This document shows positions 3,383 to 61,048 of a stretch of DNA of 64,000 nt, one piece after another; within the stretch, counting starts at the first letter, position 1, and each line of letters opens with the position of its first letter. The stretch covers positions 69,375-133,374 of the forward strand of contig MFGB01000023.1 of the NCBI GenBank assembly GCA_001780275.1, written 5' to 3'. The position numbers were made by a program, and so were the translations under genes. The notes below the pieces were generated by a model. That model saw nothing but the letters and a program-made list of their open reading frames with translations, ran no database searches and had not been told where the DNA came from. This DNA is from Candidatus Falkowbacteria bacterium RIFOXYA2_FULL_47_19. GTDB lineage: Bacteria; Patescibacteriota; Patescibacteriia; Patescibacteriales; UBA12075.

Positions 3383-4192
3383 ATGCCAGTCCAGAGATTA
3401 AAAGAAAAGATACTCGAATTGACCGGACTTTTGTGCGCCGAAACCGGGATATTCCAGAAACTTGTAATCATTTACAAGTATATCCGCCTGCTCAATACTG
3501 ATCCGCTGGCAAAAAACATCCTGCAGGGCATTTTTGACGAAACCACGGCCACCATGGGCGAATTGTGCAAGGGTGTAACAGACGAAAAGGAATTCATCAA
3601 CGTTAGCGGAGAAGCGCTGTTCACAAACGAATTCTGGCTTTACTTTTCTAACTTGCAAAAAATCCACGACCGGATGAAAAAACTGAAGCAAGAGCCGACC
3701 TGCAACCGGCAGGAAGTCAGGGATTTATGCAATCTGTTTTCAAAGCCGTATTCCGGCGAAATGCTTGAATTATCCGTTAAGATCGTGAACAGCAACGTCT
3801 TTGAACGGCTCGATCAAGAGGGGTTCGTCAATGGCCACGAACTCGAGGGCAAAACATACTTCGACCAGAAGCGGAGCATTTTGTATATAAAGGGGCAAAA
3901 GGTTTTGATCAATATCCAGGACAAGATCACGAACGCCCACAAGATACTAAAATACATCTTCATCGACAACAAGAAAAACCTGGAAGACGATTTTTTCTAT
4001 TCGGAAATAGCCGAAGACGAATTTCAGGATACGGAATACAAGAGCAATCAGAAAGCCTGGGAAACTTACCACATCGCCTGCCGGTATATAAACAAGAAAG
4101 TCATGGAGCAGACCAATAACAAAGTAACGAATTTTCTGATCTACAACACCGGCAAAACCGGAAAAGTAAAATTGAATAAAATCTATCTGTAA
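3383..4192 (+). CDS. Hypothetical protein, first gene of the phage-like element
   Basis: 269-aa ORF followed by a clean terminator. I recognise no motif. Confidence 0.5.
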   Translation: MPVQRLKEKILELTGLLCAETGIFQKLVIIYKYIRLLNTDPLAKNILQGIFDETTATMGELCKGVTDEKEFINVSGEALFTNEFWLYFSNLQKIHDRMKKLKQEPTCNRQEVRDLCNLFSKPYSGEMLELSVKIVNSNVFERLDQEGFVNGHELEGKTYFDQKRSILYIKGQKVLINIQDKITNAHKILKYIFIDNKKNLEDDFFYSEIAEDEFQDTEYKSNQKAWETYHIACRYINKKVMEQTNNKVTNFLIYNTGKTGKVKLNKIYL

Positions 4193-11643: not shown

Positions 11644-11735
11644 CTACGTCCCGAAGCCTCGGGACTTCGGCGCCTGTCCGCCTTTGGAGGAGGCAATGCC
11701 CGCAAAAACCCCGTGGCAAACGGCAATATTTAAAT

Positions 11736-33833: not shown

Positions 33834-34631
33834 TTAACTTTCTTTCGTATTAGAAGCAGAGGCCAGCTTTCTCTGTACGTCTCTTATCAGAAAACCGAAA
33901 GAAAATAAGCTATACGAAAAAAATAAATAAGCCAACCCCCAAAAAAAATCAAGTCCCCGATACGGCCAGATGCCTTCCATATATAGAGAATAATTGGCGG
34001 CGTACGCGATATCCGCGACCACGAATAATGTCATGCCTATAAGCATATGGAGCCAGGGAAAAAATATTTTTCCGCCCCTGTATTCTCTGATGATCAATAT
34101 TATCAATACCGTCATTATCGCCAGTATGATATCGCCGACACCGTAAAAAATATTGATCGCATTATTGAGCCAGGGCAGCCCCTTGTCATAACCGGCGATC
34201 ACGCCGTAATGCGCGGCCAGATAAACCGACAAAACCGAAAAAACAGCGGTTATGATTATCCTTTTAAAGGTCCAGGCTATCTTCCCTTTTTTTATTTCAA
34301 ACAAAAATCCCGCGGCCAAAAAAGGATACCCGAGCAAATAGAAAAAATCCCATAAAAACGTCTGGCGATCCTCAAAAAAACCCGACACGACCCACATGGC
34401 CTCTGCTATAAACCAGCCGGTTAAACCCAGGACGATCAGGAATATGGAAAAATTCCTTACGCCGCTGAACTTAACTGCGTAAAAACCGCCGATAACGCAC
34501 ATTAAGGGGGGTAATAAATAAGCGATACCGCTTACTCTGCTCCCCAGGGCCTCTTCTTTTATAAATAAATACGAAGCCAGCAGAATTACATAGATAATCG
34601 ATAATAAAATGATCAGATGTCCCTTCTTCAT
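33834..34631 (-). CDS. Polytopic integral membrane protein, unknown function
   Basis: About 8 hydrophobic segments. Confidence 0.55.
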   Translation of the reverse strand: MKKGHLIILLSIIYVILLASYLFIKEEALGSRVSGIAYLLPPLMCVIGGFYAVKFSGVRNFSIFLIVLGLTGWFIAEAMWVVSGFFEDRQTFLWDFFYLLGYPFLAAGFLFEIKKGKIAWTFKRIIITAVFSVLSVYLAAHYGVIAGYDKGLPWLNNAINIFYGVGDIILAIMTVLIILIIREYRGGKIFFPWLHMLIGMTLFVVADIAYAANYSLYMEGIWPYRGLDFFWGLAYLFFSYSLFSFGFLIRDVQRKLASASNTKES

Positions 34632-34828
34632 AAATTTAAAAATGGTTCGATTTGCTTTTTAGCATTATCAGGACCTACGATTTCTGATAATAATTCCTCC
34701 AGAGTCTGCATGATCATGGGCTCCGGAATAACCATAAAATGCTTTTCATACATCTTCGCGGTCGTATCTCCTAAATAATTCGAAATCAGTCCGGTTGCCT
34801 TTGATATAATCGCATCTTTTTTCGTCAT
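34628..34828 (-). CDS. Hypothetical 66-aa protein
   Basis: The ORF overlaps the downstream membrane protein gene by 4 nt. Confidence 0.4.
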   Translation of the reverse strand: MTKKDAIISKATGLISNYLGDTTAKMYEKHFMVIPEPMIMQTLEELLSEIVGPDNAKKQIEPFLNL

Positions 34829-34874
34829 AGTGTTGTACTGAATTCATTATAGCATTATCGGCATAACATGGAAA

Positions 34875-35369
34875 TTAACCAAGGAGCTTATCGACAACAG
34901 TAACGGTTTTGTCCAAAATAACATCGCCTTCGCCAAACCGAAAAACCGCCTTCACTAATTTACCATTCATTACCGCCGGCACCCAAAATTCATCATCCGG
35001 CCACATCTCGCTAAAAGGAAGTTCGGATACTTCGAACCATTCCGGCCTCATCTCCTCCGACTCAGAGGGTTCCCCCTCCCACTTTTCGGCGAAAAACACG
35101 TGCACCGCCTGGTCCCAGTCCGGATTATGCGGAAAACAAAATTCCAGGATCGCCCTTTTATCGAGATCGCGCACGCGCACGCCGATCTCTTCTTCCGTTT
35201 CCCGGACCGCGGCTTCTTCAATGCTTTCTCCCGGATTAAGCTTGCCGCCGACGCCGTTCCACCGGTTTACCCCGAAGCCGCGCTTTTTCATGGCCAAACA
35301 GACCCGGTCTATTTTATCCCCGGATCTCTTTATCAGGAATACGAGAGTGGCATTTCTTAGTTGAGGCAT
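34875..35369 (-). CDS. Nudix hydrolase (MutT-like)
   Basis: An intact Nudix box (GGKLNPGESIEEAAVRETEEEIGV). The start is moved to MPQLRN so that the ORF does not overlap the tRNA. Confidence 0.8.
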   Translation of the reverse strand: MPQLRNATLVFLIKRSGDKIDRVCLAMKKRGFGVNRWNGVGGKLNPGESIEEAAVRETEEEIGVRVRDLDKRAILEFCFPHNPDWDQAVHVFFAEKWEGEPSESEEMRPEWFEVSELPFSEMWPDDEFWVPAVMNGKLVKAVFRFGEGDVILDKTVTVVDKLLG

Positions 35370-35380
35370 ATTTTTCAGGG

Positions 35381-35467
35381 CGGAGGGAGTGGGATTTGAA
35401 CCCACGGTAGGCGTTAACCCACAACAGTTTTCAAGACTGTCGCCTTAAACCGCTCAGCCATCCCTCC
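35381..35467 (-). tRNA. tRNA-Ser (anticodon UGA)
   Basis: Hand-folded: acceptor GGAGGGA/TCCCTCC; anticodon arm ACAGT-CTTGAAA-ACTGT; long variable arm; T-arm GTGGG-TTCAAAT-CCCAC. Confidence 0.85.
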
Positions 35468-35517
35468 ATTCTAAATATCGAGTGTCAAATCACCGTTCAA
35501 CACTCGACATTTGATTG

Positions 35518-35607
35518 CGGAGAGGGAGGGATTCGAACCCTCGAGAGGCTTTTAAGACCCCTAGCACGTTAGCACCGTGTCGCTTTCGACCACTCAGCCA
35601 CCTCTCC
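35518..35607 (-). tRNA. tRNA-Ser (anticodon GCU)
   Basis: Hand-folded, 90 nt: acceptor GGAGAGG/CCTCTCC; anticodon loop GTGCTAA; long variable arm; T-arm GAGGG-TTCGAAT-CCCTC. Confidence 0.8.
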
Positions 35608-35637
35608 GAAGTATCATTATTTTTTATTTTTCGCGAT

Positions 35638-35784
35638 GGATTCGCCCAGTCATCCGACTGGACGCCGGGTCGGATGACCCGGCGAACCCTCGAGAGGCTT
35701 TTAAGACCCCTAGCACGTTAGCACCGTGTCGCTTTCGACCACTCCCCGCCCGAGGCGGGTCCGCCTTGGGCGGAAGCCACCTCT
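35638..35784 (-). pseudogene. tRNA-Ser(GCU)-derived pseudo-copy, truncated at both ends, with a 30-nt insert in the D-loop and a 40-nt insert in the T-loop
   Basis: It is identical to the neighbouring tRNA from position 3 through the T-loop, apart from two GC-rich inserts. The D-loop insert is cccgcccgaggcgggtccgccttgggcgga (35745-35774). The T-loop insert is gcccagtcatccgactggacgccgggtcggatgacccggc (35644-35683). The 3' acceptor strand is missing. Confidence 0.8.
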
Positions 35785-35797
35785 TTATAAAATATTA

Positions 35798-36049
35798 TTA
35801 TTTAATCGTATCACGCAAAAGATATTTTATCCTTTCTCTGCCCTGACCAGACTTTAAAAATTTCTCTTCCGTTCTAGCATCTTTTTCTGATTTGAAAACT
35901 TCATAATAGACCAAAACCCAGGGTCCATTATTGTTTGTAAAATCTGATTTTCGAAAATTATGTTCTTTTATCCGTCTTTTTAAATCAGAAGTAAATCATT
36001 TATATAACTTATTGTTTTTTTCGCTTTTTAGTATGTAAACATAGAACAT
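35798..36049 (-). pseudogene. Small GIY-YIG nuclease-domain gene (83 codons) with an in-frame TGA at the conserved YIG glycine; AT-rich
   Basis: Hand-translated: MFYVYILKSEKNNKLYK*FTSDLKRRIKEHNFRKSDFTNNNGPWVLVYYEVFKSEKDARTEEKFLKSGQGRERIKYLLRDTIK. The TGA is the complement of 35996-35998. It aligns with the Gly in the LY-x-G-x-T-x-D-L motif of the UPF0213/GIY-YIG family. Confidence 0.75.
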
Positions 36050-36061
36050 AACGAATTCAGC

Positions 36062-36109
36062 CCACTCCCCGCCCGAGGCGGGTCCGCCTTGGGCGGAAGC
36101 CACCTCTCC
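36062..36109 (-). repeat. Second copy of the tRNA-Ser 5' segment carrying the same 30-nt D-loop insert (direct repeat flanking the GIY-YIG gene)
   Basis: ccactccccgcccgaggcgggtccgccttgggcggaagccacctct is repeated at 35739-35784 and 36062-36107. This copy also includes the complete 5' end GGAGAGG. Confidence 0.85.
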
Positions 36110-36182
36110 ATGCCTATATTTTATTATTTCCCTGATTTATGCTATAATTACTATATAAAAATAATCAAAAAAAGTCAAATAT

Positions 36183-36683
36183 ATGGAGGATAATATTAAA
36201 ACCATAGATTCCGGCCGGGAATTATTCGGCTGGAGAGTGGATGAATTCATTAAACACGACCGCTCCCGCTCCTGGTATGCGAAAGCGATCATCATCGCTT
36301 TTTTAATGCTCCTTTTCGCCTTTTTGACATCTAACTTTCTTTTTGCTATTATTATAATAATTTTTGCGTTGATAATTATTCTGCACCATGACCGCGAACC
36401 GGAAAGAATCAGGGTCGGCGTAACCGACCAGGGAATTATTATCGGCCAAAGGTTTTATGATTATGATGAAATGAGGAATTTCGCCATTGTCTATAAACCC
36501 GGGCAGGGCATCAAAAACCTGTATTTCGAATTTAAAAGCGTTGTAAGGCAAAGGCTGTCGATTCCTCTGGAAGGCGAGAACCCCTTGCCAATCCGGGAAA
36601 ATCTGCTAAAATATTTACCGGAAGACAAAGAGCGGACCGATATACCGTTATCCGAACTGCTGTCAAAAATATTTAAATTATAA
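36183..36683 (+). CDS. Membrane protein, unknown function
   Basis: A TM hairpin (AIIIAFLMLLFAFLTSNFLFAIIIIIFALIIIL) followed by a soluble C-terminal domain. Confidence 0.55.
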   Translation: MEDNIKTIDSGRELFGWRVDEFIKHDRSRSWYAKAIIIAFLMLLFAFLTSNFLFAIIIIIFALIIILHHDREPERIRVGVTDQGIIIGQRFYDYDEMRNFAIVYKPGQGIKNLYFEFKSVVRQRLSIPLEGENPLPIRENLLKYLPEDKERTDIPLSELLSKIFKL

Positions 36684-36703
36684 TCTTTGATTCTTAAATA
36701 GAG

Positions 36704-36730
36704 GCAGGTGTCTTCTACCTGCTTTTTATT
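36704..36730 (+). terminator. Rho-independent terminator
   Basis: The stem is gcaggt / acctgc, followed by tttttattt. Confidence 0.7.
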
Positions 36731-36736
36731 TAACTC

Positions 36737-36808
36737 GCACCCGTCGTTCAACGGATAGGACACAAGATTGCGGATCTTGTAATCGAAGTTCGATTCTTCG
36801 CGGGTGCA
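36737..36808 (+). tRNA. tRNA-Arg (anticodon GCG)
   Basis: Hand-folded, 72 nt: acceptor GCACCCG/CGGGTGC; anticodon arm CAAGA-TTGCGGA-TCTTG; T-arm CGAAG-TTCGATT-CTTCG. Confidence 0.85.
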
Positions 36809-36928
36809 CATCTAAAAACAGGAACCTTTTGGTTTCTGTTTTTGTTTTAACTTGACACAATACAAAAAATATGCTAAATTTAAATATTAAAATTAAGCTT
36901 AAAATTGCTCTTAAAAAAGGAGGGGGCC

Positions 36929-37372
36929 ATGATAATTAAATTGCCCGGACAGTATTCCGGCGAAAAGATCATCGCGGCTTTCGACGAAGCCGCAACGTTT
37001 CAAGAAAATCCCGAAAAAAAATGGGAAACGGAAAAATTCGTCAAAGAATATCAATACGAACCCGGCTCCGTCAGGCAAACTGTCAGAAGCCTGGGCGTAC
37101 GTGCCCAGCCCTACTTTTTAAAAAAGAAATGGGGGCTTTGGGGCAAAAAAATCTGGAAGCTGTTTTACGACCTAAAGTTCACCTTAAAACCGGTAACTAT
37201 TTCCGAACTCTACGATGAGATTGATTTGTCTGTTCGCTACGTTTATGATGGCGATCAATACTTTGAATACGTGGCTACCGACCCCAGTAGTCCGGCGTTT
37301 GAGGATATCCGTCCGCAACTGGAAATGATTCTACAAAGATTCTACGACTTTCTCAAAACGCAAACCTCCTAA
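36929..37372 (+). CDS. Hypothetical protein
   Basis: The ATG is preceded by AAGGAGGGGG. The TTG start given in the ORF track is less likely. Confidence 0.5.
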   Translation: MIIKLPGQYSGEKIIAAFDEAATFQENPEKKWETEKFVKEYQYEPGSVRQTVRSLGVRAQPYFLKKKWGLWGKKIWKLFYDLKFTLKPVTISELYDEIDLSVRYVYDGDQYFEYVATDPSSPAFEDIRPQLEMILQRFYDFLKTQTS

Positions 37373-37397
37373 AATCGTAAAAAAATACCAAAAAAAT

Positions 37398-37421
37398 ACG
37401 GACACACCCTGTCCGTTTTTT
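37398..37421 (+). terminator. Rho-independent terminator
   Basis: The stem is acggaca / tgtccgt, followed by tttttt. Confidence 0.7.
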
Positions 37422-37462
37422 AATTCATAGAAATATCATTTATTTTATGCTAAAATATAATT

Positions 37463-39559
37463 ATGCTAACTTTAGATACTGACATAACTAAAATAAACCG
37501 TATCGGAGCGACTACCGCCAAACGCCTCTATTCACTCGGCATAAAAACGGCCCGGGACCTGCTTTTATATTTCCCTTATCGGTATGAGGATTTCCGGGCT
37601 CCGGCTCCGATCGGGGGGCTCTCAGCCGGACAATCCGCCAATGTGGTCGGGCAAATCGAGCATATTCACGGCCGGAGAAGTTTTCGCCGCCGCCTGTCCG
37701 TAACCGAAGCGATAGTTAACGACGGGACGGACAGCCTCAGGGTTATCTGGTTTAATCAGCCGTTTATCGCCCGTTCGCTCGCGGTCGGCGACCGGGTCTC
37801 TTTGGCCGGAAAGATCGAGGGCGATTACGGCGGCTTTATGATGAAATCGCCGGTTTACGAGAAAATAACCGCCGGGGGAGGCCTCCATACCCAGGGGCTT
37901 GTCCCGGATTACCATCTGACCTTTGGGCTTACGCAAAAGCAGATCCGGTTCCTCGTCAAAGAGGTAATCGATCTGGCTGATAAATTTCCGGACTATTTGC
38001 CCCCGGAAATCGTCCGCGGCCAGAACCTGCTTACCCTTGATAAAACCATAAAAAAAATCCACTTTCCCGATGACCTTAACGATATCGAACTCGCCAAAAA
38101 ACGTTTAGCCTGGGATGAGCTTTTTTTGGTTCAGGCGCGGTCGCAGCTGACGCGCCGGGAGCTAATGCTTACCCGGGCGAAAGCGGTAAAATTCAGGGAA
38201 AAAGACACAAAAACCTTCGTGGATTCCCTGCCTTTCCGCCTGACCGACGACCAGAAGAAAGCCGCCTGGGCGATACTTAATGATATGGAAAAAACCGAAC
38301 CGATGGCGCGCCTTTTGGAAGGAGACGTAGGCAGCGGCAAAACCCTGGTCGCCGTTATCGCCATGCTTAATGCCGCCCTGAACAAAAAACAATCAGTTCT
38401 TATGGTACCGACCGAGATCCTCGCGCATCAGCATTTTGCGGTTATTTCCAGGCTGCTTTCCGCCATGAAAATATCCGTCGGACTGATCACTAGAAGTAAA
38501 AAAGCCATTTTCCCGGAACAAACGGATAAAAAAATAAATTCTTCATTCATCATTCAAAATTCAAAAATCATCATCGGCACCCATTCCCTGATCCAGGAAA
38601 AAATCGAATTCAATGATCTATCTCTGGTAATAATAGACGAACAGCATCGCTTCGGCGTCGATCAACGCCGAATGCTGATGCAAAAAACATCTTCCCGATC
38701 GGCAACCGAAAACCGACAATCAAAAATCGAAAATCTCCCCCATTTATTATCCATGACCGCCACCCCGATCCCCCGGTCTCTGGCCCTGGCCTTATTCGGC
38801 GACCTTAACCTGTCCGTCATCCGGGAAATGCCCAAAGGCAGGAAGCCGATTACGACCAAGGTCGTACCGGAGGAAAAACGCGAAGCTGCCTATAAATTCA
38901 TCCGCGATCAGGTTAAAGAGGGCAGACAGGTATTCGTGATCTGCCCCTTGATCGATCCTTCGGACAAGCTCGGAGTTAAATCCGTCAAAGAAGAATTCGA
39001 AAAACTCGACAAAACGATATTTCCCGATCTACCTGTCGGACTGCTACATGGCCGCCTCAAACCGAAAGAAAAAGAAAAAATCATGGCGGATTTTCTCGAT
39101 AAAAAAACAAAGATCCTCGTGTCCACTTCGGTCGTCGAAGTCGGCGTGGATGTGCCCAACGCCACAATCATGATGATCGAGGGCGCCGACCGTTTTGGGT
39201 TGGCGCAACTGCACCAATTCCGCGGGCGGGTCGGCCGGGGAGAGAACCAGTCTTATTGTTTCCTCTTTGCCGAAAGCCGGGCTTTGAGAACCGCGCAAAG
39301 GCTTAGCGCGATGGAGAAATATTCGAGCGGCTTCGATCTGGCCAAGGTCGACCTTAAATTCCGCGGTCCGGGAGAGATTTACGGCACGGTCCAGAAAGGC
39401 TTTCCGGAATTCAGGATCGCGTCCCTCTTTGATCACGAGCTCATCGAAAAAACCAGCCAAGCCGCCGCCGCTCTCATAAAAAAAGATCCGGAGCTTAAGG
39501 AGTATCCGGAGCTTAAGGAAAAATTAGGGGAGTATGAGAAACGAGTGCATTTGGAGTAA
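37463..39559 (+). CDS. recG: ATP-dependent DNA helicase RecG
   Basis: Wedge/OB N-domain. Helicase motifs are GDVGSGKT, IIDEQHRFGV, MTATPIPR and QLHQFRGRVGRG. Confidence 0.9.
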   Translation: MLTLDTDITKINRIGATTAKRLYSLGIKTARDLLLYFPYRYEDFRAPAPIGGLSAGQSANVVGQIEHIHGRRSFRRRLSVTEAIVNDGTDSLRVIWFNQPFIARSLAVGDRVSLAGKIEGDYGGFMMKSPVYEKITAGGGLHTQGLVPDYHLTFGLTQKQIRFLVKEVIDLADKFPDYLPPEIVRGQNLLTLDKTIKKIHFPDDLNDIELAKKRLAWDELFLVQARSQLTRRELMLTRAKAVKFREKDTKTFVDSLPFRLTDDQKKAAWAILNDMEKTEPMARLLEGDVGSGKTLVAVIAMLNAALNKKQSVLMVPTEILAHQHFAVISRLLSAMKISVGLITRSKKAIFPEQTDKKINSSFIIQNSKIIIGTHSLIQEKIEFNDLSLVIIDEQHRFGVDQRRMLMQKTSSRSATENRQSKIENLPHLLSMTATPIPRSLALALFGDLNLSVIREMPKGRKPITTKVVPEEKREAAYKFIRDQVKEGRQVFVICPLIDPSDKLGVKSVKEEFEKLDKTIFPDLPVGLLHGRLKPKEKEKIMADFLDKKTKILVSTSVVEVGVDVPNATIMMIEGADRFGLAQLHQFRGRVGRGENQSYCFLFAESRALRTAQRLSAMEKYSSGFDLAKVDLKFRGPGEIYGTVQKGFPEFRIASLFDHELIEKTSQAAAALIKKDPELKEYPELKEKLGEYEKRVHLE

Positions 39560-52249: not shown

Positions 52250-55200
52250 TTATCGTTCAGTTACCACTATCCAGGCGTTCGAAAATCCGTCCGTGTCCCA
52301 ATCGCCGTAGAGCTGGTAACCTTGCGCCGTTCCTCCCGGACAGGGAAAGCCGTCAGTGCCGTTATTGCACCATCCCCAATTATCCTTAACTTTTAAGCTC
52401 GGCCGAACCACGCAGCAATCGCTTTGCGAAGGACAGATAAAGCCGCTCGAAACGTTTTCGTAATTGCGGGCCAGGGCGTTGGCCGCGCCGCAATAGACCG
52501 TATTCTGCCCCGCGCCGTAATTCATGACCCGCTTAGCCCTAAGATCCCAATAGCTGTACAAATGGAACAAGGAATGGGGATTTTCCCAGTTTTTCCGGTC
52601 GCGCATCTCGACGCCGGACACGACCGTACCTTCGTTATCTCCCCAATCGACCGCGTACATGACGAGCGGCAGCTGATCGGCGTCCACGATGCTGTTGAAC
52701 GTCAGATTAACGAAGCCGTTGCCGTGTATCGCCGGAAAAGGCGGATTGCCCGGATTATTATCGACCGTGATATTCTCTATTCTCGGTTTTACGCCGCAAA
52801 AATCGCAGTGCTCGGAACCCAGGGTCGTGCCCGGACACTGGAAGCAGTCCCCGTCATTGCACTCCCCTTCCTGCGTACTGGGGTTGAGATCCCAGACCGG
52901 CCGTGCCCAGTCGTTTCCACCCGCGCTCTTGCAGGTATTTATCGGCGGATCCCAGAAGGTAACTTCTCCGGTCCCCATCGGTACCGCTGAATAGCGCCCG
53001 GCCCGGGTAGAGGCCAGGACGCAATAATCGTTAAGGCAGATCTGCCGGTCGTTGCATTGCCCGCCGACATTATCGCCCCCGACGCAGGTGTCCCACTCGC
53101 AAGTCGTATAATAAGCGCAATCCGCGTTAGAATTGCAGGTATCATGGGTTTCGTTGCATAACGCTTGCCCGGCAACGCCGTTCGGAGAGGGCAAGGTCCA
53201 ATAATTGACGCAGGTCTGCCGTTCCAGGGCCGTACAGCAATCGGCGCCGCAATCATCCGTACCGTCGGCATTGCCGTCGCCGCAACAAACCTCGCAGCAA
53301 TCGCTCGCGATACAATTCACTCCGCCGGCTCCGCAGACGGTGTTAAAGGCGCTGCAGGCGTTAGCTGTGCTTAATTGCGCCGCTGTCTGTCCTTCGAATA
53401 ATATATCATTGCATGGATCAGTCGTGGCTATCTGGCCGTTGACGCAATTCCGATAATTAACGGATACACCACTGGCATTAACGTTATACATCGGGGTGTC
53501 GTAAGTTCCGCTTTCCCTGTACATAACGCAGCGCGCCTGGCAGGCTCCGTTCGGACACTGGTTCATATCGTAAGAGCAGTCCGTGGCCGAGTTAGCGGCG
53601 CAATGCCCTTCCGTCCCCTGCCATTCCCAAACCCCATAGCTTTGGGCGAATATCCGCCTTAGCTTCTGGTGCGGATCGATCGTGGCTAATTCCACGTTAA
53701 AAAGATCCTGGTTACAGCGCTCGCCCGCCGGACAAGTCAAAAAAGTCTGCTGCCAATTTTCGTAACACGGATTGGTGTCGTCATTCGGACAATAATTTAT
53801 TACGCCAGTGGGCCGATTGACCGGTACGTTATAACAGACATCCCCGCTTATATCGCAGAGTCCCAGATGCCCGCACTGGCTGCCGACGCAGTCATACGGC
53901 GCTCCGGCCCGGGCCGCATCCGTCGATTCTCCGAGCATATAGAGGGGCTGAAGACCGCCCTGATCGCCGTCGCTGTCCCATTCATAAGGATTATTGACCG
54001 GAGCCGGCGGTACGGCGGAACCGTAAGGCGTGTCATCGGTGTCATAACGGTAACGGAGCTCCGCTATCTCGTAGGGACTGCCGGTGTTGACGCGGGCGGT
54101 CCAGGCTTTATTTTGTCCGGTCGCATTGACCGTTTGCCAGATCTTCTGGCAGGTCAGATTATAGTTTCGCGGATCGAACGGCGCCGAGTCTACGCCGGTG
54201 TCGTATATCCTGACTCCATCCCTGGTCTCATCCCAGCCGCCGTTATCCAACCCGTTGAATTTTACTAGGTTGCCGTTATAACGATACCACATGCCGGTAA
54301 CGAGGTGATCTTCGATCGGCGTGCAATAATAACGGATCGTTACCCGGCGTCTAAAAGCGTTGCCGCCGCTATGTCTGGTTATCCTTATACGATATCCGCC
54401 GTTCTGGATCCCCTCGTCTTCGGCCGGACAGACATTAGCCGCGCCCTCCATCTCTTCTTCGTCGGGGAAAAATACCTCTCCCGGTATTCCTACAAGTAAA
54501 ATTCCGGCTATATTGCCTAAAAGGGTCAGACCTGATTGCCTGATAGTCCTTAAAAGCCTCTCTTCGCGATGTTCGACCAAGATAAAATCGGCCCGGACAT
54601 TATCGCAGTAATAAACCGGGAATTTTCCGGAATAACCGCTATAAATATCCTCGTCCGAAACGCCGTCGCCCTTGACCCGGTCGACCGGCCACCAGGTTAC
54701 GCAATTCTCGGCCGACCCGGGATAACGGTCGTATTCAAGGCAATACCCCCAAAATCCTTTTTTTCGTATACCGGTGTCCTCTATATAATCGCAGCTTAAG
54801 GATTCATTTTCCGGATAAAGACGGCAAGTTTGCGGTACCCATTTTCCGGTTTGCGCGAACAGGGCCGGGCTTAATTTTATGTCATCCATATAATAATTGC
54901 CGTCCCCGGTCGTGGATAAAACAAGTCTTATTCTTTGAGCGGTGGACTGGACCTGGAATCTCTGATTTAAGAACGTCCAGGGATGGCCGTATTCCAGGGA
55001 TAGGCCTACCGCCGATTCGAGCAGGACGCCCTCGGCGTTGTACTGCTCGATCGTGATGTCGGCGGATTGAGTGCTTAAGTTCTGGGTGTCTATCATGGCC
55101 GAAATAATATAATGCAAACCGCTCATCGCTTCGATAAGATCGGATTCGATAGCGTAACCCTTGCCCGCTTTAAGGAAAGAACTGCCTTCGGGAGAGAACC

Positions 55201-58200
55201 CGACGCCTTCGTTTTGTGCCGCCACCGGATTATCGATCACTCGGAAAAAATCCGCGCTCCAGACGAGATCGCTCCGCGACAGATTCCAGCCGATCGGATA
55301 ACCGTTGTTTCCCGATATTTCAAAGTTGCCGTTATTAAGATAGATCACTTCGCCCTCCTGTGCCATGGCGCCGAAGGGGAAATAATCGGCTTCCTCCGAG
55401 CCGCCTATATAGCCCACCTTGCTGTAACCGGTCGTATTGGCATACAGATCCGCGTCCGCCGAGCCGGTATAGGTTTGATTCTCCTGCCTCGATATGATGA
55501 AATTATCGCAATCGCCGTTATCGTCAAGGCTGTCGCACAGGCCTGTGCCGAAACATACATTCGCCCCTTTTCTGTCTTTGATATAACTCCGGCAGGACAA
55601 CCATTCATTGCAAACCCTGTCCGGTTTTACCTTAAGAATGGCGTTGGCGTCGCAACTGTCCAGGCCGCAATTGCGAGGATTTCCGTTTTCCGGCACCGGA
55701 CTGTTATCAGCATCAAAAACGAGGGCGGCATAATTTACGTCGATATTATCGCCGCCGGTAATGGCGCGTTCGTTGAACAAAACGCATCCTTCCTCGTAAT
55801 TAATGACACCGTTGCAATCCGTTCTGTTAAGATCCCTTTTCAGCTGGTAGCTGACAACCGCCTTATTGATAATAACTTTAGTGCCGTTATTGACCGCCGC
55901 GTTACCGGCGTCCGCTATTATATCCGTATCGGTCCTCGATACGCCGTATTCGGTAAAAAATCTCAAACTGGCCCTTTCTCCGGCCGTAGACCCCAGGCTA
56001 AGAGTGGAAACCGGCGTCTGAAAACGATTATTATCCGCTAAGACGTAAAAAACCGTGATCGGATTGCCGTCCCCGTCCCGGGCCGTAACCGTTACGGAAT
56101 TAGCGCCTTCGACCGTCAATATGTAAAGCGTATTCGGATCCAGGTCGATTTCCTGGTTGCCGGTCGATATTTGCCAGCCATCGGCAGTGCCGTCCAGATC
56201 AACATCCTGGGAAAAATCGCCGTTATAGATCTCGTTAGTATTGAAATCAGACCGGGGATCGACGTATTCGCTGCAACCCGCCTGATCAGCGGAACAGAGC
56301 CCGGCCCAAAATCCGTAAGTATCGATCGTGGGCTGGTTTACGATATTGCCGTTGCCGCCGTAACCGATCGTTTTTATCGGACTGGCCGCGGATGTGCAAA
56401 GATAATCGTTCCTGTCCTGAATACAGCTATAGCGGCATTGGCCGGCCTCGCAGGTCATAAAAGATCCGCAGTCGGCGTTTTCCGAACAGGCCAGTCCGTT
56501 CGAACCGCAATCGGCGGCTTTAAGGCATAATCGGTTTTCCAAGGGCTGGAAGAAGCCTGCCGTCGAGGTGGCGTCGATTTCGCCATTAACCGCTGACAGC
56601 GGATCCGAACCGTCGTCGCAGCGGCTTACCTGTTTCTGGTACCATCCCCAGCTCAATTCGCTTGCTCCTAAACCGGCGCCCTGCTTCCATTCGCAGGTCT
56701 GGTCGCCGGGATCCTTAAAATATTCAACGCCGTCTTTAGCCGCCCAGGCTTCGCAACCGGCTGTATTTTCGTCGCACAATATGCGGTCATACTCATCCGG
56801 ATCGTTTTTCCGGAATATTTCGTCATAAACCGCCTGGCCGCTGAATTCATGAGGGAGACCCAGGCGGCTGCAGCCTTTGCCGGCCGGACCGCATTCCTTT
56901 TCCGGATCGGCCACGAGATAAACGAAACTATCCGCCAAAATCGATTCGCAATCCTCTCCGTCCGCCGGATCGCAAACCCCGTCGCCGCCGTCATTCCAGA
57001 AGGTCGCCCCGAAGTCGGTCGAATTGTGCGTATCGATCGCCAGCTCGCAATTAACGGCCGATTGGTCGCAAAGTTGGGTGAATCGGCGCAAATAATAAGT
57101 CAACCCCTCTTTGTCGCTCCAGGTGCCGCAACCCAGGTTATGGAGTTCGCCGGCCGGATTGCCGTTTATATCGTTAAAGCATGAATCCGGGATATTCCGG
57201 GAATTCTTCAGAAGATAATAGCGATCGACGATCTCCGTCAGCCGGATATCATCGATAAAAAAATTGCCGTTTGCCGTTATGACCAGGCTCTCGTCGGCCG
57301 CTACCGCGTGATCGACGGCTGTAAGATCGAGTTCATAAAGCCGCCACTCGGGAGTCAGGGTAAGCGACAGCAAAGGATCGGATGTAAAAGAAGACGCGTT
57401 GGAACTGTTGGAAATAACGATCGAATTGAATTGCGTGGCCGGAGAACCGCCGCCGGCGTTCTGTTTGGCGATAAAGCGGATATTATATGATTTTCCTTCG
57501 TTAATAAGGTTGCCTAAATTAAGGCTTGTCCCCACGGGAGCGGGACCGGAAACGGAAAGGGATTCCCCTCCCACAAAAAGAGATTCGCTGTCCGTCACGA
57601 CCGTAGCGCCTCCCGTCCCGCGCCAGCCCTGCGCGCTGCCTTCGAAATCGCTGGCGGCTATTACGCGGATATTGCTGCCGGTTGATCCGGTGTATTCACG
57701 GCAAGAGGCCTGGGAAGCCGAGCATTTCCTTCCTTCGCCCGGTATGGCCATATATATGCAGGCGCCATGGTCGTTGCGCCAGGTTCCTCCGTTCTTGCAG
57801 TAAACGCATTCCTGCTGAACCGCGTCGTAATGCATGCTGTTCGGATCGGGATCAAGGGCGGCACAAGCGGCCGCGCCGATATCAGCGCCCGTTACCGGGT
57901 CTCTGACTATATTCTGCTCGGTGCGGCGATACGGATGGCAATCTTCGCCACAGGTTATCGTCCGGCTGAAAAGATGGTAGGAAAGCTGTCCGCTCTGGTT
58001 ATAGTATTCCCGGCAATCGGGGTTATAACCCGGATCGGTCGGCGGCAGATTATAGATCGTAAGATTGCATTCGGTTCCGTCGGGAGAGGTTACGTCCGGC
58101 TCCGCGCCGGCGGCCTGGAAAAGATGCGCCTTTAACTGATAGCCTGTCTCCGATGATCCCTCCCATGTATAGAAATTGGCGCAATTCGCGCCCGGATCGT

Positions 58201-61048
58201 TGGGCCGGACGCATTGCTTTAGATAAGTATAGTATTCCTTGCTTTCGCCGCCTTGTCCGATCGTATCGAGATTGGTAAATTCGTCGCAACCGACCGAAGC
58301 CGCGCCGCAGCGTTTAGCGGTTTGCGGTATCAGGAAGGAAGGCTTTAGATCGTCAAAAGAAGTGGCTGACTGAAGGTAATCATCGTAACCGACGCATTCC
58401 GCCGGGCAATAATCGGCGGCTGATATCCTGGCCGGTATGGTTAATCCTCCTTTGGCGCTCGTGAACAGCTTGCACCCGACCTCGCTTTGGTTGCAAAGCC
58501 TGGTAAACTCGCCGCAAAGAGCGGGAGCGTCGCTCCTTAAGCTGTGATCGACTCCGGGATTAACGTAGCATTCCTGGGCCATATACTCCGGGATCAATTT
58601 AAAATAGCTGACCCCGTTCGCGCGATAATCGCTATAGGCGGTGGCGGCCGGCCCTCTCTCGACTTTGATCGCGTCTATCCGGCAACTGTCGCCTCCGACA
58701 TCGGTAGTGCCTTCAATACTTATAAGCACTTGGTCGCCTCCGGTAAAAACATGACTGACCGAAAATGACCGCCAATTGCCGGAAGTTGCCAACGGAGCGG
58801 AGCTATGGTTGACGGCCCAATTGTTATTGCTGCCGATATTGATAGTGCCGCCCTCCCCGCAGCCTTTGGCATAAATCGAAAAGGTTAAAACTTCGTTTGC
58901 CAGAGACATGGGCGAAGACAGGAATATCGGTACCGCGGCCGGACCGTAGTTAGCGGGCAAATGGACGCTGCAGCTACCGAAGGCCGCGTCCTGGTCGCAT
59001 CTCTGGTCGAATCCCGCGGCTGGATCCTCAAAACTTGAATTATTGAAAAAATTAGTGCCCTGGCCGGGTAAAGCGCGGATAAATTCATGGCATCCCTCGG
59101 TATCCGCGTCGCACTCTTCGGAATCGCCGTCAAGGAATAACTTCGACCCGGCGCTTGGGGTGCAGGTAAAGATCCCGGCGTTAGCGTCGTAATCCTGGCA
59201 ATACTCTTTGCAGCCGGCGTTATCGGCGTTGCAATTGCCGTAATTAAGGGTATTTTTAAGGTAAGATGCGGTTATACCTCCCTCGCCCCGGAAAGTTTCG
59301 CAACTGTTGTATACCGGATTACAGGTTTTAGAGCCGAAACTCCACCGCCTTCTTTCTTCCGTGCAGTAACCGTAGCTTTGGCAGGAGCCGTCGTAATCTT
59401 CGTTTATACAGGTCTGTTCGTCGGCGCAATATTTATCGTTGCGGTTGACGGTCAGTTCGCTGTCATCACCCGAACCGACCACGGTTTCGATGAGTAATTC
59501 CGGTCCCGGCCCCTCCCGTTTGCAGTAATTAAGGGGGGCTTTAAGGACCCAGTTGGGATCAACCAGGCCGGCGCACCACGATCTCGTATCGGCCGCGGAA
59601 CCGTAATCATCATCGGCCTCGTAGCAGTTGACCAGGTCCTCTAGATTCCTGGCTCCGTTGGTTCCGCCCAAACTCGGATCTCCGGGATGATCTTTTATGT
59701 ATTGGGCGGCTAATTCCCAGCCCACCGGCAAGATCCGGAATTTACGCAATATGATCATAGACCGATAAGGATAACCTTCGTTATAATTCGGCTCCAATCC
59801 GTCGGACGTGAAGCCGAATATTCCTCCGGGATTAAGAAAACCCTGATTCATCGCTTCCCCGACCGTTAACCGGTCCTCGACCGCCTTCCGGAATTTATTG
59901 GTAATAACGCAGTTGGTCGGGCCGGCCTTGGTAGGCTTCGGACAAGTAGTGAGTTCTCCCAGGATATTATAATCCCCTCTGATATTAAAATCCGGCTCAA
60001 CCAACTTCCGGAATTTTTCCTTGGCGGCCGCGATCCCGCCGACATTCGAACCGGAATAATAATCGGTCAGGCCGGAACCGGAAAGCCCATAGTCGCCCGA
60101 ATAGGGACTGGTGGTTTTCTTTCCCTGCCCGAGCTTCTCCATCATGCGGTTAAAGAGGGTTACCGCCAGTTGATTCAAAAAAACGTTGATCGCGTCTTCA
60201 AAAGGATTTTCGGTGGTTTGCGCGAATTGTATCCCCTGGACATTGCTCGCGAAATTCCGCCGGCGCTCCGCTTCTCCAGGGGGGGCGGTTCGGTCTCCAC
60301 TGATCAAACCGGTTACGTCAAGCCAGCCTCCGGTCTCGTTCCGGTCCCTTAATCCGGCTTCCGCGGCCGCGTCCTTGTCGGCCATAAAACCGGTATGAAG
60401 CGTCAAAACCTGGATAAAATCATTCCCGTACGGATCGAACATGGTCTGAAATTTATTCAAAAAATCCCCCTGGGACAATTCCGCTTCCCAATTCTCTTTC
60501 ATCTGAGTGAATGAGCAGCGGGGTTTTTCCGGCCTTTCAACGCGAACCAGGCCCAGTCCGATCCTAAGGCGAAGCTGTAGGTCGGGGTTGCACAAATTAA
60601 AATTCCGGCCGGCCATCTGTTCTATAAAAGTGCCGGCCGCGTTATCGGCGACATTAGTGAGATATTCCCCCCAGCCTTCCGTGATAAAAAGCGGTTTTTG
60701 CCCTTTGCCGCCGGATCCGAGCCAGGTGGCCGTATCGTAAGCTACCGTATTCATGGCGGTGCGGAGAGCCGACCAAAAAGCGGCCGACCCCGCCTTTTTC
60801 CAGGCGAAATCCTCGGCCTGTTTATACCATTCCTTTACCCAGCTGGCGAGATTCTTCGCTGTTTGCGTCACGGTAGCTTTTAGTCCAAGCTTATCCGATG
60901 TTTTAATGGAATTCGGGTCAATCCCGCCCATCCCCGTAAGATCAATTGATTCCGCCCGCGCCCGGTAGATTCCCAAAACAGGCATTAATAAAAAAATATT
61001 AACAATCAGTAAAATAAAAAATAATTTGAAACTAAATTTTAATTTCAT
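52250..61048 (-). CDS. Giant (2932 aa) secreted Cys-rich surface protein with four CBM4_9/jelly-roll-like modules
   Basis: N-terminal signal/anchor (MKLKFSFKLFFILLIVNIFLLMPVLG). There is very high Cys content, e.g. DCCEVCCGDGNADGTDDCGADCC. Four module starts of the NGxFE...GW type are present: FFNNSSFEDPAAGF, ASDFEGSAQGWRG, IYNGDFSQDVDLDGTADGWQ and LNNGNFEISGNNGYPIGWNL. Confidence 0.8.
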   Translation of the reverse strand: MKLKFSFKLFFILLIVNIFLLMPVLGIYRARAESIDLTGMGGIDPNSIKTSDKLGLKATVTQTAKNLASWVKEWYKQAEDFAWKKAGSAAFWSALRTAMNTVAYDTATWLGSGGKGQKPLFITEGWGEYLTNVADNAAGTFIEQMAGRNFNLCNPDLQLRLRIGLGLVRVERPEKPRCSFTQMKENWEAELSQGDFLNKFQTMFDPYGNDFIQVLTLHTGFMADKDAAAEAGLRDRNETGGWLDVTGLISGDRTAPPGEAERRRNFASNVQGIQFAQTTENPFEDAINVFLNQLAVTLFNRMMEKLGQGKKTTSPYSGDYGLSGSGLTDYYSGSNVGGIAAAKEKFRKLVEPDFNIRGDYNILGELTTCPKPTKAGPTNCVITNKFRKAVEDRLTVGEAMNQGFLNPGGIFGFTSDGLEPNYNEGYPYRSMIILRKFRILPVGWELAAQYIKDHPGDPSLGGTNGARNLEDLVNCYEADDDYGSAADTRSWCAGLVDPNWVLKAPLNYCKREGPGPELLIETVVGSGDDSELTVNRNDKYCADEQTCINEDYDGSCQSYGYCTEERRRWSFGSKTCNPVYNSCETFRGEGGITASYLKNTLNYGNCNADNAGCKEYCQDYDANAGIFTCTPSAGSKLFLDGDSEECDADTEGCHEFIRALPGQGTNFFNNSSFEDPAAGFDQRCDQDAAFGSCSVHLPANYGPAAVPIFLSSPMSLANEVLTFSIYAKGCGEGGTINIGSNNNWAVNHSSAPLATSGNWRSFSVSHVFTGGDQVLISIEGTTDVGGDSCRIDAIKVERGPAATAYSDYRANGVSYFKLIPEYMAQECYVNPGVDHSLRSDAPALCGEFTRLCNQSEVGCKLFTSAKGGLTIPARISAADYCPAECVGYDDYLQSATSFDDLKPSFLIPQTAKRCGAASVGCDEFTNLDTIGQGGESKEYYTYLKQCVRPNDPGANCANFYTWEGSSETGYQLKAHLFQAAGAEPDVTSPDGTECNLTIYNLPPTDPGYNPDCREYYNQSGQLSYHLFSRTITCGEDCHPYRRTEQNIVRDPVTGADIGAAACAALDPDPNSMHYDAVQQECVYCKNGGTWRNDHGACIYMAIPGEGRKCSASQASCREYTGSTGSNIRVIAASDFEGSAQGWRGTGGATVVTDSESLFVGGESLSVSGPAPVGTSLNLGNLINEGKSYNIRFIAKQNAGGGSPATQFNSIVISNSSNASSFTSDPLLSLTLTPEWRLYELDLTAVDHAVAADESLVITANGNFFIDDIRLTEIVDRYYLLKNSRNIPDSCFNDINGNPAGELHNLGCGTWSDKEGLTYYLRRFTQLCDQSAVNCELAIDTHNSTDFGATFWNDGGDGVCDPADGEDCESILADSFVYLVADPEKECGPAGKGCSRLGLPHEFSGQAVYDEIFRKNDPDEYDRILCDENTAGCEAWAAKDGVEYFKDPGDQTCEWKQGAGLGASELSWGWYQKQVSRCDDGSDPLSAVNGEIDATSTAGFFQPLENRLCLKAADCGSNGLACSENADCGSFMTCEAGQCRYSCIQDRNDYLCTSAASPIKTIGYGGNGNIVNQPTIDTYGFWAGLCSADQAGCSEYVDPRSDFNTNEIYNGDFSQDVDLDGTADGWQISTGNQEIDLDPNTLYILTVEGANSVTVTARDGDGNPITVFYVLADNNRFQTPVSTLSLGSTAGERASLRFFTEYGVSRTDTDIIADAGNAAVNNGTKVIINKAVVSYQLKRDLNRTDCNGVINYEEGCVLFNERAITGGDNIDVNYAALVFDADNSPVPENGNPRNCGLDSCDANAILKVKPDRVCNEWLSCRSYIKDRKGANVCFGTGLCDSLDDNGDCDNFIISRQENQTYTGSADADLYANTTGYSKVGYIGGSEEADYFPFGAMAQEGEVIYLNNGNFEISGNNGYPIGWNLSRSDLVWSADFFRVIDNPVAAQNEGVGFSPEGSSFLKAGKGYAIESDLIEAMSGLHYIISAMIDTQNLSTQSADITIEQYNAEGVLLESAVGLSLEYGHPWTFLNQRFQVQSTAQRIRLVLSTTGDGNYYMDDIKLSPALFAQTGKWVPQTCRLYPENESLSCDYIEDTGIRKKGFWGYCLEYDRYPGSAENCVTWWPVDRVKGDGVSDEDIYSGYSGKFPVYYCDNVRADFILVEHREERLLRTIRQSGLTLLGNIAGILLVGIPGEVFFPDEEEMEGAANVCPAEDEGIQNGGYRIRITRHSGGNAFRRRVTIRYYCTPIEDHLVTGMWYRYNGNLVKFNGLDNGGWDETRDGVRIYDTGVDSAPFDPRNYNLTCQKIWQTVNATGQNKAWTARVNTGSPYEIAELRYRYDTDDTPYGSAVPPAPVNNPYEWDSDGDQGGLQPLYMLGESTDAARAGAPYDCVGSQCGHLGLCDISGDVCYNVPVNRPTGVINYCPNDDTNPCYENWQQTFLTCPAGERCNQDLFNVELATIDPHQKLRRIFAQSYGVWEWQGTEGHCAANSATDCSYDMNQCPNGACQARCVMYRESGTYDTPMYNVNASGVSVNYRNCVNGQIATTDPCNDILFEGQTAAQLSTANACSAFNTVCGAGGVNCIASDCCEVCCGDGNADGTDDCGADCCTALERQTCVNYWTLPSPNGVAGQALCNETHDTCNSNADCAYYTTCEWDTCVGGDNVGGQCNDRQICLNDYCVLASTRAGRYSAVPMGTGEVTFWDPPINTCKSAGGNDWARPVWDLNPSTQEGECNDGDCFQCPGTTLGSEHCDFCGVKPRIENITVDNNPGNPPFPAIHGNGFVNLTFNSIVDADQLPLVMYAVDWGDNEGTVVSGVEMRDRKNWENPHSLFHLYSYWDLRAKRVMNYGAGQNTVYCGAANALARNYENVSSGFICPSQSDCCVVRPSLKVKDNWGWCNNGTDGFPCPGGTAQGYQLYGDWDTDGFSNAWIVVTER

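Follow-up and report, generated by a model that had tools for sequence, protein, structure and literature searches.

A 64,000-nt stretch of the genome of Candidatus Falkowbacteria bacterium RIFOXYA2_FULL_47_19 (contig MFGB01000023.1, positions 69,375 to 133,374; the whole stretch is called the window below, and positions are counted from its first letter) carried a rearranged tRNA-Ser(GCU) locus, in which a displaced 5′ fragment of the tRNA gene (F1), a GIY-YIG nuclease open reading frame (ORF), a truncated tRNA copy decorated with hairpins (F2), and an intact tRNA gene followed each other on the minus strand. This region probably arose when small selfish tRNA-gene cassettes of the candidate phyla radiation (CPR)/Patescibacteria inserted twice, one within the other, and it is now decaying. 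Such a cassette would be composed of a minimal GIY-YIG gene of about 80 amino acids (aa), UPF0213/SLX1-like in type, plus a GC-rich, strand-symmetric double hairpin of either 30 nt (H30) or 40 nt (H40). The copy in the window is non-functional debris; its ORF is foreign (28% GC versus 48% for the window) and decaying (TGA at Gly18), and F2 cannot be a tRNA because the acceptor strands are missing (it lacked tRNA nt 1–2 and the whole 3′ acceptor strand). An earlier reading of this DNA from its letters (below, the original prediction) had the features right, but it missed the inactivation of the ORF and took as one event what would be two nested ones.

Insertion relative to an empty site

Related genomes were located through the neighboring gene of 166 aa. 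Nine contigs from several projects carried an identical 166-aa protein, and eight of them shared the structure of the window base for base. The ninth contig, L004 (ERZ27254748 k141_422275; 3501–3562), from the same population as the window, lacked the 149 bp between the 62-nt repeats (window 35534–35744) and therefore the intact tRNA-Ser(GCU), only a 5′-truncated copy bearing H30 being left; this loss may be an assembly collapse or a real minority allele. Several short contigs ended inside the repeats of the locus.

The closest different genome, L212 (Ca. Falkowbacteria), had a neighbor protein of 94% identity and flanks 93% identical in DNA, and at the corresponding site it displayed the promoter and leader known from the window, followed directly by a clean tRNA-Ser(GCU) with the sequence of the intact window copy. 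The window segments aligning to L212 overlapped by tRNA nt 1–12 and lay 500 bp apart in the window, and the F1 flank aligned as far as tRNA nt 12. At the level of alignment, the window was thereby demonstrated to carry an insertion relative to the empty site: the ~500 bp that begin with H30 of F1 and end with nt 12 of the intact tRNA are read as inserted because L212 displays the site without them. The site was also empty in L216, a more distant relative, and it was occupied in L214; this conserved site was thus polymorphic for presence and absence (L212 and L216 empty, the window and L214 occupied), the kind of polymorphism by which homing genes are recognized.

One of the three explanations offered in the original prediction, that a nuclease cassette had entered a tRNA-like target and caused a duplication, was upheld by the empty site in L212 and by dozens of related ORFs flanked by a duplicated tRNA 5′ part (see below). 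It had also held that inserts unique to this locus, without any cassette-free variant, would leave a one-off rearrangement; the inserts recur and empty sites exist, which favors a real mobile element.

Organization of the tRNA-Ser(GCU) locus

F1 had an unbroken 5′ end (GG, from 36109 on), while F2 lacked GG and started at tRNA nt 3 (35784); the gap from F1 to the ORF was 12 nt and that from the ORF to F2 was 13 nt (Table 1). F1 and F2 shared 46 nt at 100% identity (36062–36107 versus 35739–35784), 323 nt apart, and F2 and the intact gene shared 62 nt at 100% identity (35683–35744 versus 35534–35595). The second tRNA-Ser(GCU) copy matching the intact gene, its truncated acceptor ends (F2 begins at nt 3 and ends in AATCC), and the 46-bp 5′ repeat with a complete 5′ end across the GIY-YIG gene had all been described in the original prediction and were found as described, with the fragment start corrected to 36109 (GG).

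F2 got no tRNA call from ARAGORN or Rfam, and an Rfam scan of 34000–38000 at E ≤ 1 gave three tRNAs and chance matches only, with nothing in 35608–36110. The GIY-YIG ORF was the only ORF between the direct repeats, with no tyrosine or serine recombinase inside the unit, and no integrase was present among the flanking ORFs examined. The 64-kb window contained no second copy of H40, no third copy of H30, and no other such ORF. The promoter-like site upstream of F1 is presumed to be the original tRNA-Ser(GCU) promoter, which would now drive the cassette.

Table 1. Coordinates of the components of the tRNA-Ser(GCU) locus in the window
Feature	Position	Strand	Basis or remark
Promoter-like site TTGACT-17-TATAGT	36150..36178	minus	Consensus scan, 10/12 matches; upstream of F1
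F1, displaced 5′ fragment of tRNA-Ser(GCU): nt 1–12 + H30 + nt 13–18 (GAGTGG)	36062..36109	minus	Sequence, repeat comparison
H30 copy 1, 30-nt strand-symmetric double hairpin (TCCGCC-CAA-GGCGGA, then CCCGCC-TCG-GGCGGG)	36068..36097	no strand	
GIY-YIG nuclease pseudogene, UPF0213/SLX1-like type, 83 codons	35798..36049	minus	Pfam PF01541
In-frame TGA, codon 18, replacing the invariant Gly of the Y-K-G motif	35996..35998	minus	
F2, decorated truncated tRNA-Ser(GCU) copy: nt 3–12, H30, nt 13–57, H40, AATCC	35638..35784	minus	
H30 copy 2, identical to copy 1	35745..35774	no strand	
H40, 40-nt T-loop double hairpin (CCGGGTC-ATCC-GACCCGG, CG, TCCAGTC-GGAT-GACTGGG, CG)	35643..35682		
AT-rich 30-nt spacer, F2 end to intact tRNA	35608..35637	minus	
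Intact tRNA-Ser(GCU), presumably functional	35517..35607	minus	ARAGORN; Rfam tRNA, 52.9 bits
tRNA-Ser(UGA), downstream neighbor, same transcription direction	35378..35468	minus	ARAGORN, Rfam

Two further observations concerned the window outside this locus: (i) positions 11650–11700 (minus strand), just upstream of tRNA-Trp, contained an imperfect H30-like hairpin (TCCTCCAAAGGCGGA) plus the GC hairpin GTCCCGA-GGCT-TCGGGAC, not clearly related to H30 or H40; and (ii) positions 52250–61048 (minus strand) contained a very long ORF of 2932 aa.

The GIY-YIG ORF and its protein family

The GIY-YIG gene that the original prediction had placed between the repeats matched PF01541 in a Pfam search (E = 3.1e-15, 56.7 bits versus a cut-off of 22.6). 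The homologue search, for which the protein was used with Gly placed at codon 18, gave 354 homologues; the closest were 75–81% identical and about 80 aa long, and those with a named source all fell in Patescibacteria/CPR lineages. Residues Y5, Y16, G18, R26, H30 (here the histidine, not the hairpin), and E62 were invariant in a 34-member alignment, and the family members appear to be active nucleases because these catalytic residues are invariant. The profile matches to solved structures were closest for UPF0213 (1zg2, E = 2e-11, and 1ywl), followed by SLX1 (7wme/6seh); the closest solved UPF0213 proteins were BH0048 and EF2693, and the structure-specific endonuclease SLX1 came next. A phage origin was considered and rejected, as just one viral contig had a relative of the ORF, just two had H30, and none had H40.

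The window ORF kept the family invariants Y5, Y16, R26, histidine 30, and E62, and only its G18 codon was TGA. Codon 18 in relatives was GGA (15), GGT (9), GGC (4), or GGG (4), and TGA in none; a check of the host code found TGA as the stop of 7 of the 43 long ORFs of the window. The window ORF is therefore taken as a pseudogene, with TGA at codon 18 in a host that uses TGA as a stop. Because GGA was the commonest codon at this position, no relative had TGA, and window ORFs stop at TGA, a single nonsense change in a gene that was active until recently would account for it. An alternative code rescuing the ORF (UGA = Gly, code 25) was considered and rejected, since long ORFs of the window stop at TGA and no relative has TGA at Gly18.

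The double hairpin H30

The 30-nt D-loop double-hairpin insert of the original prediction, H30 (TCCGCCCAAGGCGGACCCGCCTCGGGCGGG), was present in exactly two identical copies in the 64 kb (35745–35774 and 36068–36097), where none would be expected by chance. It directly followed tRNA nt 12 and directly preceded nt 13, without duplication or loss of a base. Its consensus in relatives was composed of two adjacent 15-nt hairpins, YCNGCC-CNA-GGCNGR and YCNGCC-TNG-GGCNGR, and it was strand-symmetric: in the reverse complement, too, a CNA hairpin precedes a TNG hairpin. Covariation was assessed on copies located through the protein and not through the DNA motif. Over 30 such copies, the two-stem fold had 99.3% of cells paired, changes on both sides were present in 8 of 12 pairs, and none of 500 shuffles was as good; judged by this covariation, H30 appears to be under selection as two separate stems. 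A fold of H30 as one 30-bp palindrome or long hairpin was unsupported (80.8% paired, below shuffles).

A pattern scan for H30 was also applied to metagenomes and gave at least 120 contigs; the following figures for solo copies hold among the matches listed. About 105 of 125 H30 copies had no GIY-YIG ORF within 80 nt and no tRNA nearby, and 79 of 118 solo copies were located inside ORFs of at least 150 aa. A single frame held 59 of those 79 genic copies, encoding S-A-Q-G-G-[S/P]-A-[S/L]-G-[G/W]. In the flanks, T predominated at −2 (81%) and A at +2 (75%), and the target was not duplicated. The RecG orthologue of L137 (3812–3841) harbored an exact 10-residue insert between GTHAVI and QQSIKF when compared to the window RecG (37463–39559). 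H30 thus appears as a dispersed, strand-symmetric double-hairpin family that also moves on its own. The hairpin mini-elements targeting tRNA loops that the original prediction had envisaged were hence borne out and turned out wider in range, H30 occurring also in frame in protein genes and H40 recurring at the T-loop (see below). Besides L137, about 79 metagenomic loci among the matches listed (L090–L211) had H30 in frame inside long ORFs, mostly in the frame that encodes this decapeptide.

Architecture of the cassette family

One genome per species was scanned with the alignment of the protein family, which gave 80 loci. In 28 of the first 34, a complete tRNA-Ser (with any anticodon) started at most 60 nt after the ORF stop; more distant relatives of the ORF adjoined other tRNAs or sat immediately downstream of a tRNA. 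The tRNAs within 150 nt were co-oriented with the ORF in 56 of 57 cases, the exception being a locus called on both strands by ARAGORN, and direct repeats of the 5′ portion of the neighboring tRNA typically bordered the ORF. About 30 of the 40 closest ORFs had H30 at a distance of 6–41 nt before the ATG, and H30 was rare elsewhere in the same loci.

The 29 H30-type loci resolved these junctions further: in 21, the sequence left of H30 was the adjoining 5′ end of the neighboring tRNA, and 3–12 contiguous tRNA nt followed H30 before homology ended. The H30 site in the tRNA was after nt 12/13 (most loci), nt 21–23, or nt 35/36. Since the tRNA fragment ended 3–12 nt after the hairpin wherever the hairpin sat, the hairpin is tied to a DNA junction, and this is the strongest hint that the hairpin may position the insertion event. 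The two ORFs most similar to that of the window (79% aa identity), located at tRNA-Ser(GCU), each displayed the order fragment, H30, a few tRNA nt, ORF, and clean complete tRNA.

Several loci showed variations of this architecture. Tandem arrays of the whole unit were observed at L023:507–1166 (323 nt), L039:1974–2414 (312 nt), L068:2652–3615 (315 nt, three copies), and L080:1821–2435 (302 nt); the array of L023 contained two units, and its period of 323 nt equaled the F1–F2 spacing in the window. The cassettes at L040:1452–1481 and L045:3250–3279 were located downstream of a tRNA, and in both of them H30 overlapped the 3′ end of the ORF, the stop TAG being the loop of the second hairpin, and was followed by a 3′ tRNA fragment starting in the T-loop. 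Near the cassettes of L021 (2808–2895) and L109, ARAGORN called a tRNA-Ser with the unusual anticodon ACT beside a normal tRNA-Ser, which may be a mutated duplicate.

The second hairpin family H40 and decorated debris

The 40-nt T-loop insert of the original prediction was likewise recovered (35682–35643) and was unique in the window. H40 homologues were found in three other loci (L193, L133, and L214), always between TTCG and CGAAT of the tRNA T-loop. Over the four copies, the two 7-bp hairpins had 98.2% of cells paired, and 6 of 14 pairs were changed on both sides. The 10-bp T-loop stem proposed in the original prediction (GTCATCCGAC/GTCGGATGAC) can form in the window copy, but it was not a conserved fold, with 87.5% paired over the four copies, equal to shuffles.

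The locus of L214 was orthologous to that of the window (window 35638–35692 aligned at 78%) and displayed the order degenerate 5′ tRNA-Ser(GCU) copy, H40, cgaatcc, 14 nt, GIY-YIG ORF, about 290 nt, and complete tRNA-Ser(GCU). L133 had a mirror-image layout, with H40 after a GIY-YIG ORF that lay directly downstream of a complete tRNA-Ser(GCU). H40 thus appears to be a second double-hairpin family, linked to GIY-YIG ORFs in L214 and L133. The match between the ORFs of these two loci is at most suggestive of a co-evolution of hairpin type with ORF clade, and the more distant ORF subfamilies had other GC hairpins within a partial tRNA copy.

Two loci contained hairpin-decorated tRNA debris. L193:11524–11745, beside an intact tRNA-Arg(CCU), contained decorated tRNA pieces arrayed without an ORF: a 3′ fragment bearing a single T-loop hairpin, a tRNA-like copy with a D-loop H30, and another T-arm with H40. 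The pairing of D-loop H30 with T-loop H40 was the same as in the window, though the locus is unrelated. L212:2520–2660 (minus strand) contained such debris just downstream of tRNA-Ser(UGA), despite the empty tRNA-Ser(GCU) site of this genome, and it was composed of a 3′ fragment with a T-arm hairpin plus a piece whose anticodon loop was replaced by a hairpin.

Proposed history and mechanism

Insertion of a cassette would leave the original promoter and the tRNA 5′ part as a fragment whose hairpin would lie exactly in a tRNA loop (D-loop at 12/13 or 21–23, anticodon loop at 35/36, or T-loop), and 3–12 further tRNA nt would lead to the ORF start. As the fragment keeps the tRNA promoter, the ORF would be read from it; the ORF and the tRNA were co-oriented, and no separate ORF promoter was apparent. 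With a complete tRNA rebuilt a few nt downstream of the ORF, the host would keep its tRNA.

The order of events in the window is reconstructed as three steps. (i) An H40-type cassette would have inserted into the T-loop of tRNA-Ser(GCU) and later lost its ORF, its remnant being H40, 7 tRNA nt (CGAATCC), the 30-nt spacer, and the intact tRNA; the spacer is read as the remnant of this older cassette because L214 has the same layout with an ORF and L128 is an ORF-less H30 analogue. (ii) An H30-type cassette would then have inserted into the D-loop of the displaced dead 5′ copy, giving F1–ORF–F2 with its 323-bp period. F2 could also acquire H30 because the displaced copy was not needed and would face no selection against it, and three routes are conceivable: F1 may have donated H30 by gene conversion, a tandem array of two units may have collapsed, or a 323-bp circle may have recombined into an H30-bearing fragment. 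(iii) Later, GGA would have changed to TGA in the ORF.

As to mechanism, the substrate of the SLX1-like nuclease would be the hairpin, an extruded cruciform, or the neighboring tRNA loop, and the cassette would spread through break repair from a cassette-bearing copy (homing) or as a unit or circle of about 320 bp recombining through the tRNA segment. The same nuclease would mobilize solo H30 copies in trans. We tentatively entertain, as a possibility somewhat short of an even chance, that the GIY-YIG protein and the double hairpins (H30, H40, and others) form a two-part mobile system of CPR bacteria, in which the ~320-bp unit in tRNA genes would be autonomous and the solo hairpins non-autonomous and nuclease-spread, including in frame into RecG. 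The boldest variant, very unlikely in our estimation, would have the transcript of flank plus hairpin serve as a guide-plus-scaffold RNA leading the nuclease to the uninterrupted allele, in the manner of RNA-guided homing.

Objections and alternative explanations

Several points weigh against the history of two nested cassette insertions and the role given to the nuclease. (i) What ties the nuclease to the hairpin is their adjacency, and the co-evolution of hairpin type with ORF clade draws on two H40-linked ORFs, those of L214 and L133, the latter being the best match of the former. (ii) The 83-aa protein has the Pfam catalytic domain only and, unlike the characterized homing endonucleases, no DNA-binding domain of the kind through which I-TevI and the Seg proteins recognize a long target. 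(iii) A canonical cassette leaves an intact tRNA, which would still be a target were the tRNA sequence itself recognized. (iv) F2 bears H30, whereas the canonical partner tRNAs are clean, so that an extra step is needed. (v) L212 and L216 are empty, yet the more distant L214 is occupied, so the H40-type insertion would have been recurrent or precisely lost. (vi) For most metagenomic H30 copies listed, the short contig that carries them lacks a GIY-YIG gene, and H30 could for that reason move by a host process.

The last of these points leads to the alternative that survives best, though we consider it unlikely: H30 and H40 would be palindromic mini-elements in their own right, dispersed through the replication or repair of the host much like mitochondrial GC clusters, fungal double-hairpin elements, and Rickettsia palindromic elements, and the ORF would keep one of them for its expression as RNA (a 5′ stabilizer or a processing signal in the tRNA precursor). 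It would accommodate the many listed H30 copies inside ordinary genes away from a GIY-YIG ORF, the precise insertion with a simple flank preference (T at −2, A at +2) and no target duplication, the covariation, which fits single-strand hairpins and possibly RNA, and the placement of the hairpins between the tRNA promoter and the ATG. It fits less well with the presence of H30 at most 70 nt ahead of about 30 of the 40 closest ORFs and its rarity elsewhere in the same loci, with the occurrence of different hairpins in the same architectural position in different ORF subfamilies, and with the tRNA fragment always ending 3–12 nt past the hairpin, which ties the hairpin to a DNA junction and not only to expression; besides, a T-run or Shine-Dalgarno logic was not evident.

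The original prediction had further proposed a structured tRNA-derived RNA. A decorated copy that is functional as such an RNA, or as a tRNA with D- and T-loop introns removed after transcription, is hardly credible. The region did fold more stably than shuffled sequence (z = −4.9), the inserts sat exactly in tRNA loops, where non-canonical archaeal tRNA introns also sit, and contig L004 had no other tRNA-Ser(GCU). The fold stability is, however, due to the GC hairpins themselves, and this proposal did not survive the other observations: the acceptor strands of F2 are missing, an identical intact tRNA lies 30 nt downstream, the copy is absent from the sister genome L212, no Rfam family matched, and the same 30-mer occurs in frame in protein genes. 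In silico excision of H30 from 154 copies restored a complete tRNA in none, the sole ARAGORN call at a junction beginning right after the element.

Equally improbable are direct repeats that represent attachment (att) sites of an integrase-type element in a tRNA gene; such elements classically integrate into a tRNA gene and duplicate part of it, but the 323-bp unit holds the GIY-YIG ORF only, with no integrase or recombinase between the repeats or in the flanking ORFs examined, and it is the 5′ end that is duplicated and not the 3′ end. A unique local rearrangement, or an error in the assembly of a tRNA locus rich in repeats, which the short contigs broken in repeats and the collapse of the 62-nt repeat in L004 might bring to mind, can practically be dismissed, since eight independently assembled contigs from different projects had a 100% identical structure and dozens of other genomes displayed the same architecture with diverged sequence and compensatory hairpin changes.

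Implications

Were the picture of a widespread cassette family true, CPR/Patescibacteria would hold an abundant and overlooked minimal selfish element, with one of the smallest nuclease genes known coupled to a hairpin of 30–40 nt; it would colonize the most conserved genes (tRNAs) without destroying them and scatter 10-residue inserts into essential proteins. The tRNA pseudo-copies and the calls of "GIY-YIG family protein" in CPR genomes could then be properly annotated, and assembly breaks at tRNA loci and odd decapeptide inserts in CPR proteins would be explained. Cassette presence or absence would provide markers for strain-level population genetics, and an 80-aa hairpin-recognizing nuclease would be a compact model for structure-specific DNA recognition and for the mobility of palindromes such as repetitive extragenic palindromic (REP) elements, Rickettsia palindromic elements (RPEs), and GC clusters.

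Comparison with known systems

The full-text literature searched, which leaves out most subscription journals, yielded no account of small GIY-YIG cassettes linked to tRNAs, or of these hairpins, in CPR bacteria. These GIY-YIG/hairpin cassettes, located beside tRNA genes in many CPR bacteria, seem to be previously undescribed: their parts have precedents, while none was found for the combination. One precedent is found in CPR rRNA genes, where GIY-YIG ORFs lie in non-intron (not group I/II) insertions, usually at the apex or the base of a stem-loop; that work treats rRNA and makes no mention of tRNA (PMC11270868). The cassettes resemble these insertions, by description and not by ORF comparison, in belonging to the same radiation and in placing GIY-YIG ORFs inside structural-RNA genes.

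Phage T4 SegB is a free-standing GIY-YIG homing endonuclease gene in a tRNA gene cluster (PMC2330249). The cassettes share with such free-standing homing genes a nuclease gene beside tRNAs, presence/absence polymorphism, foreign composition, and a cycle of gain, decay, and loss. They differ in that (i) the cassette protein is a catalytic domain of about 80 aa only, (ii) the host is cellular (one viral contig has the family), and (iii) part of the tRNA is duplicated and a conserved double hairpin belongs to the cassette. In size, catalytic motifs, and closest structure profiles, the cassette protein is like UPF0213 (YazA/YhbQ-like) and SLX1. To our knowledge, UPF0213 proteins have been treated as ordinary chromosomal genes of unknown role, whereas the cassette gene behaves as a mobile, tRNA-linked unit.

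For the hairpins, precedents exist in mitochondria, in Rickettsia, and in the REP elements of other bacteria. Paquin reportedly described in 2000 double-hairpin elements (DHEs) at the borders of mobile endonuclease ORFs. The Allomyces mitochondrial DHEs (Paquin et al. 2000, as cited in PMC2800124 and PMC4478555) show no target duplication according to the account given in PMC2800124, and in Neurospora mitochondria GC-rich palindromes flank tRNA genes (Yin et al. 1981, as cited in PMC2800124). As far as those accounts describe them, mitochondrial GC clusters and DHEs are like H30 and H40 in being short, GC-rich, paired stem-loops kept by compensatory changes, dispersed without target duplication, and found by tRNAs. 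H30 and H40, likened to them by description and not by sequence, are distinct in lying in bacterial chromosomes, as strand-symmetric 30- and 40-mers placed precisely in tRNA loops and in frame in genes, and in being tied to one nuclease family.

RPEs, of roughly 100–150 nt, are said to have been described by Ogata and colleagues in 2000 as selfish palindromes that lie in frame in housekeeping protein genes and are tolerated as an extra peptide; we know of no nuclease associated with them. H30 is like RPEs in lying in frame in protein genes, where it gives SAQGG[SP]A[SL]G[GW], and unlike them in its length of only 30 nt, in the bacterial lineage, and in the nuclease nearby. RPEs are also mentioned in PMC1779305. 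REP elements are dispersed palindromes thought to be mobilized by RAYT transposases, a single gene flanked by copies (PMC3733652). H30 similarly is a short dispersed palindrome (at least 120 metagenomic contigs) with a small gene beside it, but this gene encodes a GIY-YIG nuclease and not an HUH (Y1) tyrosine transposase, it lies within a tRNA locus, and the H30 copies are mostly genic and not extragenic (79 of 118 solo copies listed).

Integrative elements target tRNA genes, duplicate part of them, and regenerate a functional tRNA. The cassettes likewise enter a tRNA gene, duplicate part of it, and preserve a functional tRNA; unlike integrative elements, they do so without an integrase, with the 5′ part duplicated instead of the 3′ part, and with a unit of about 320 bp.

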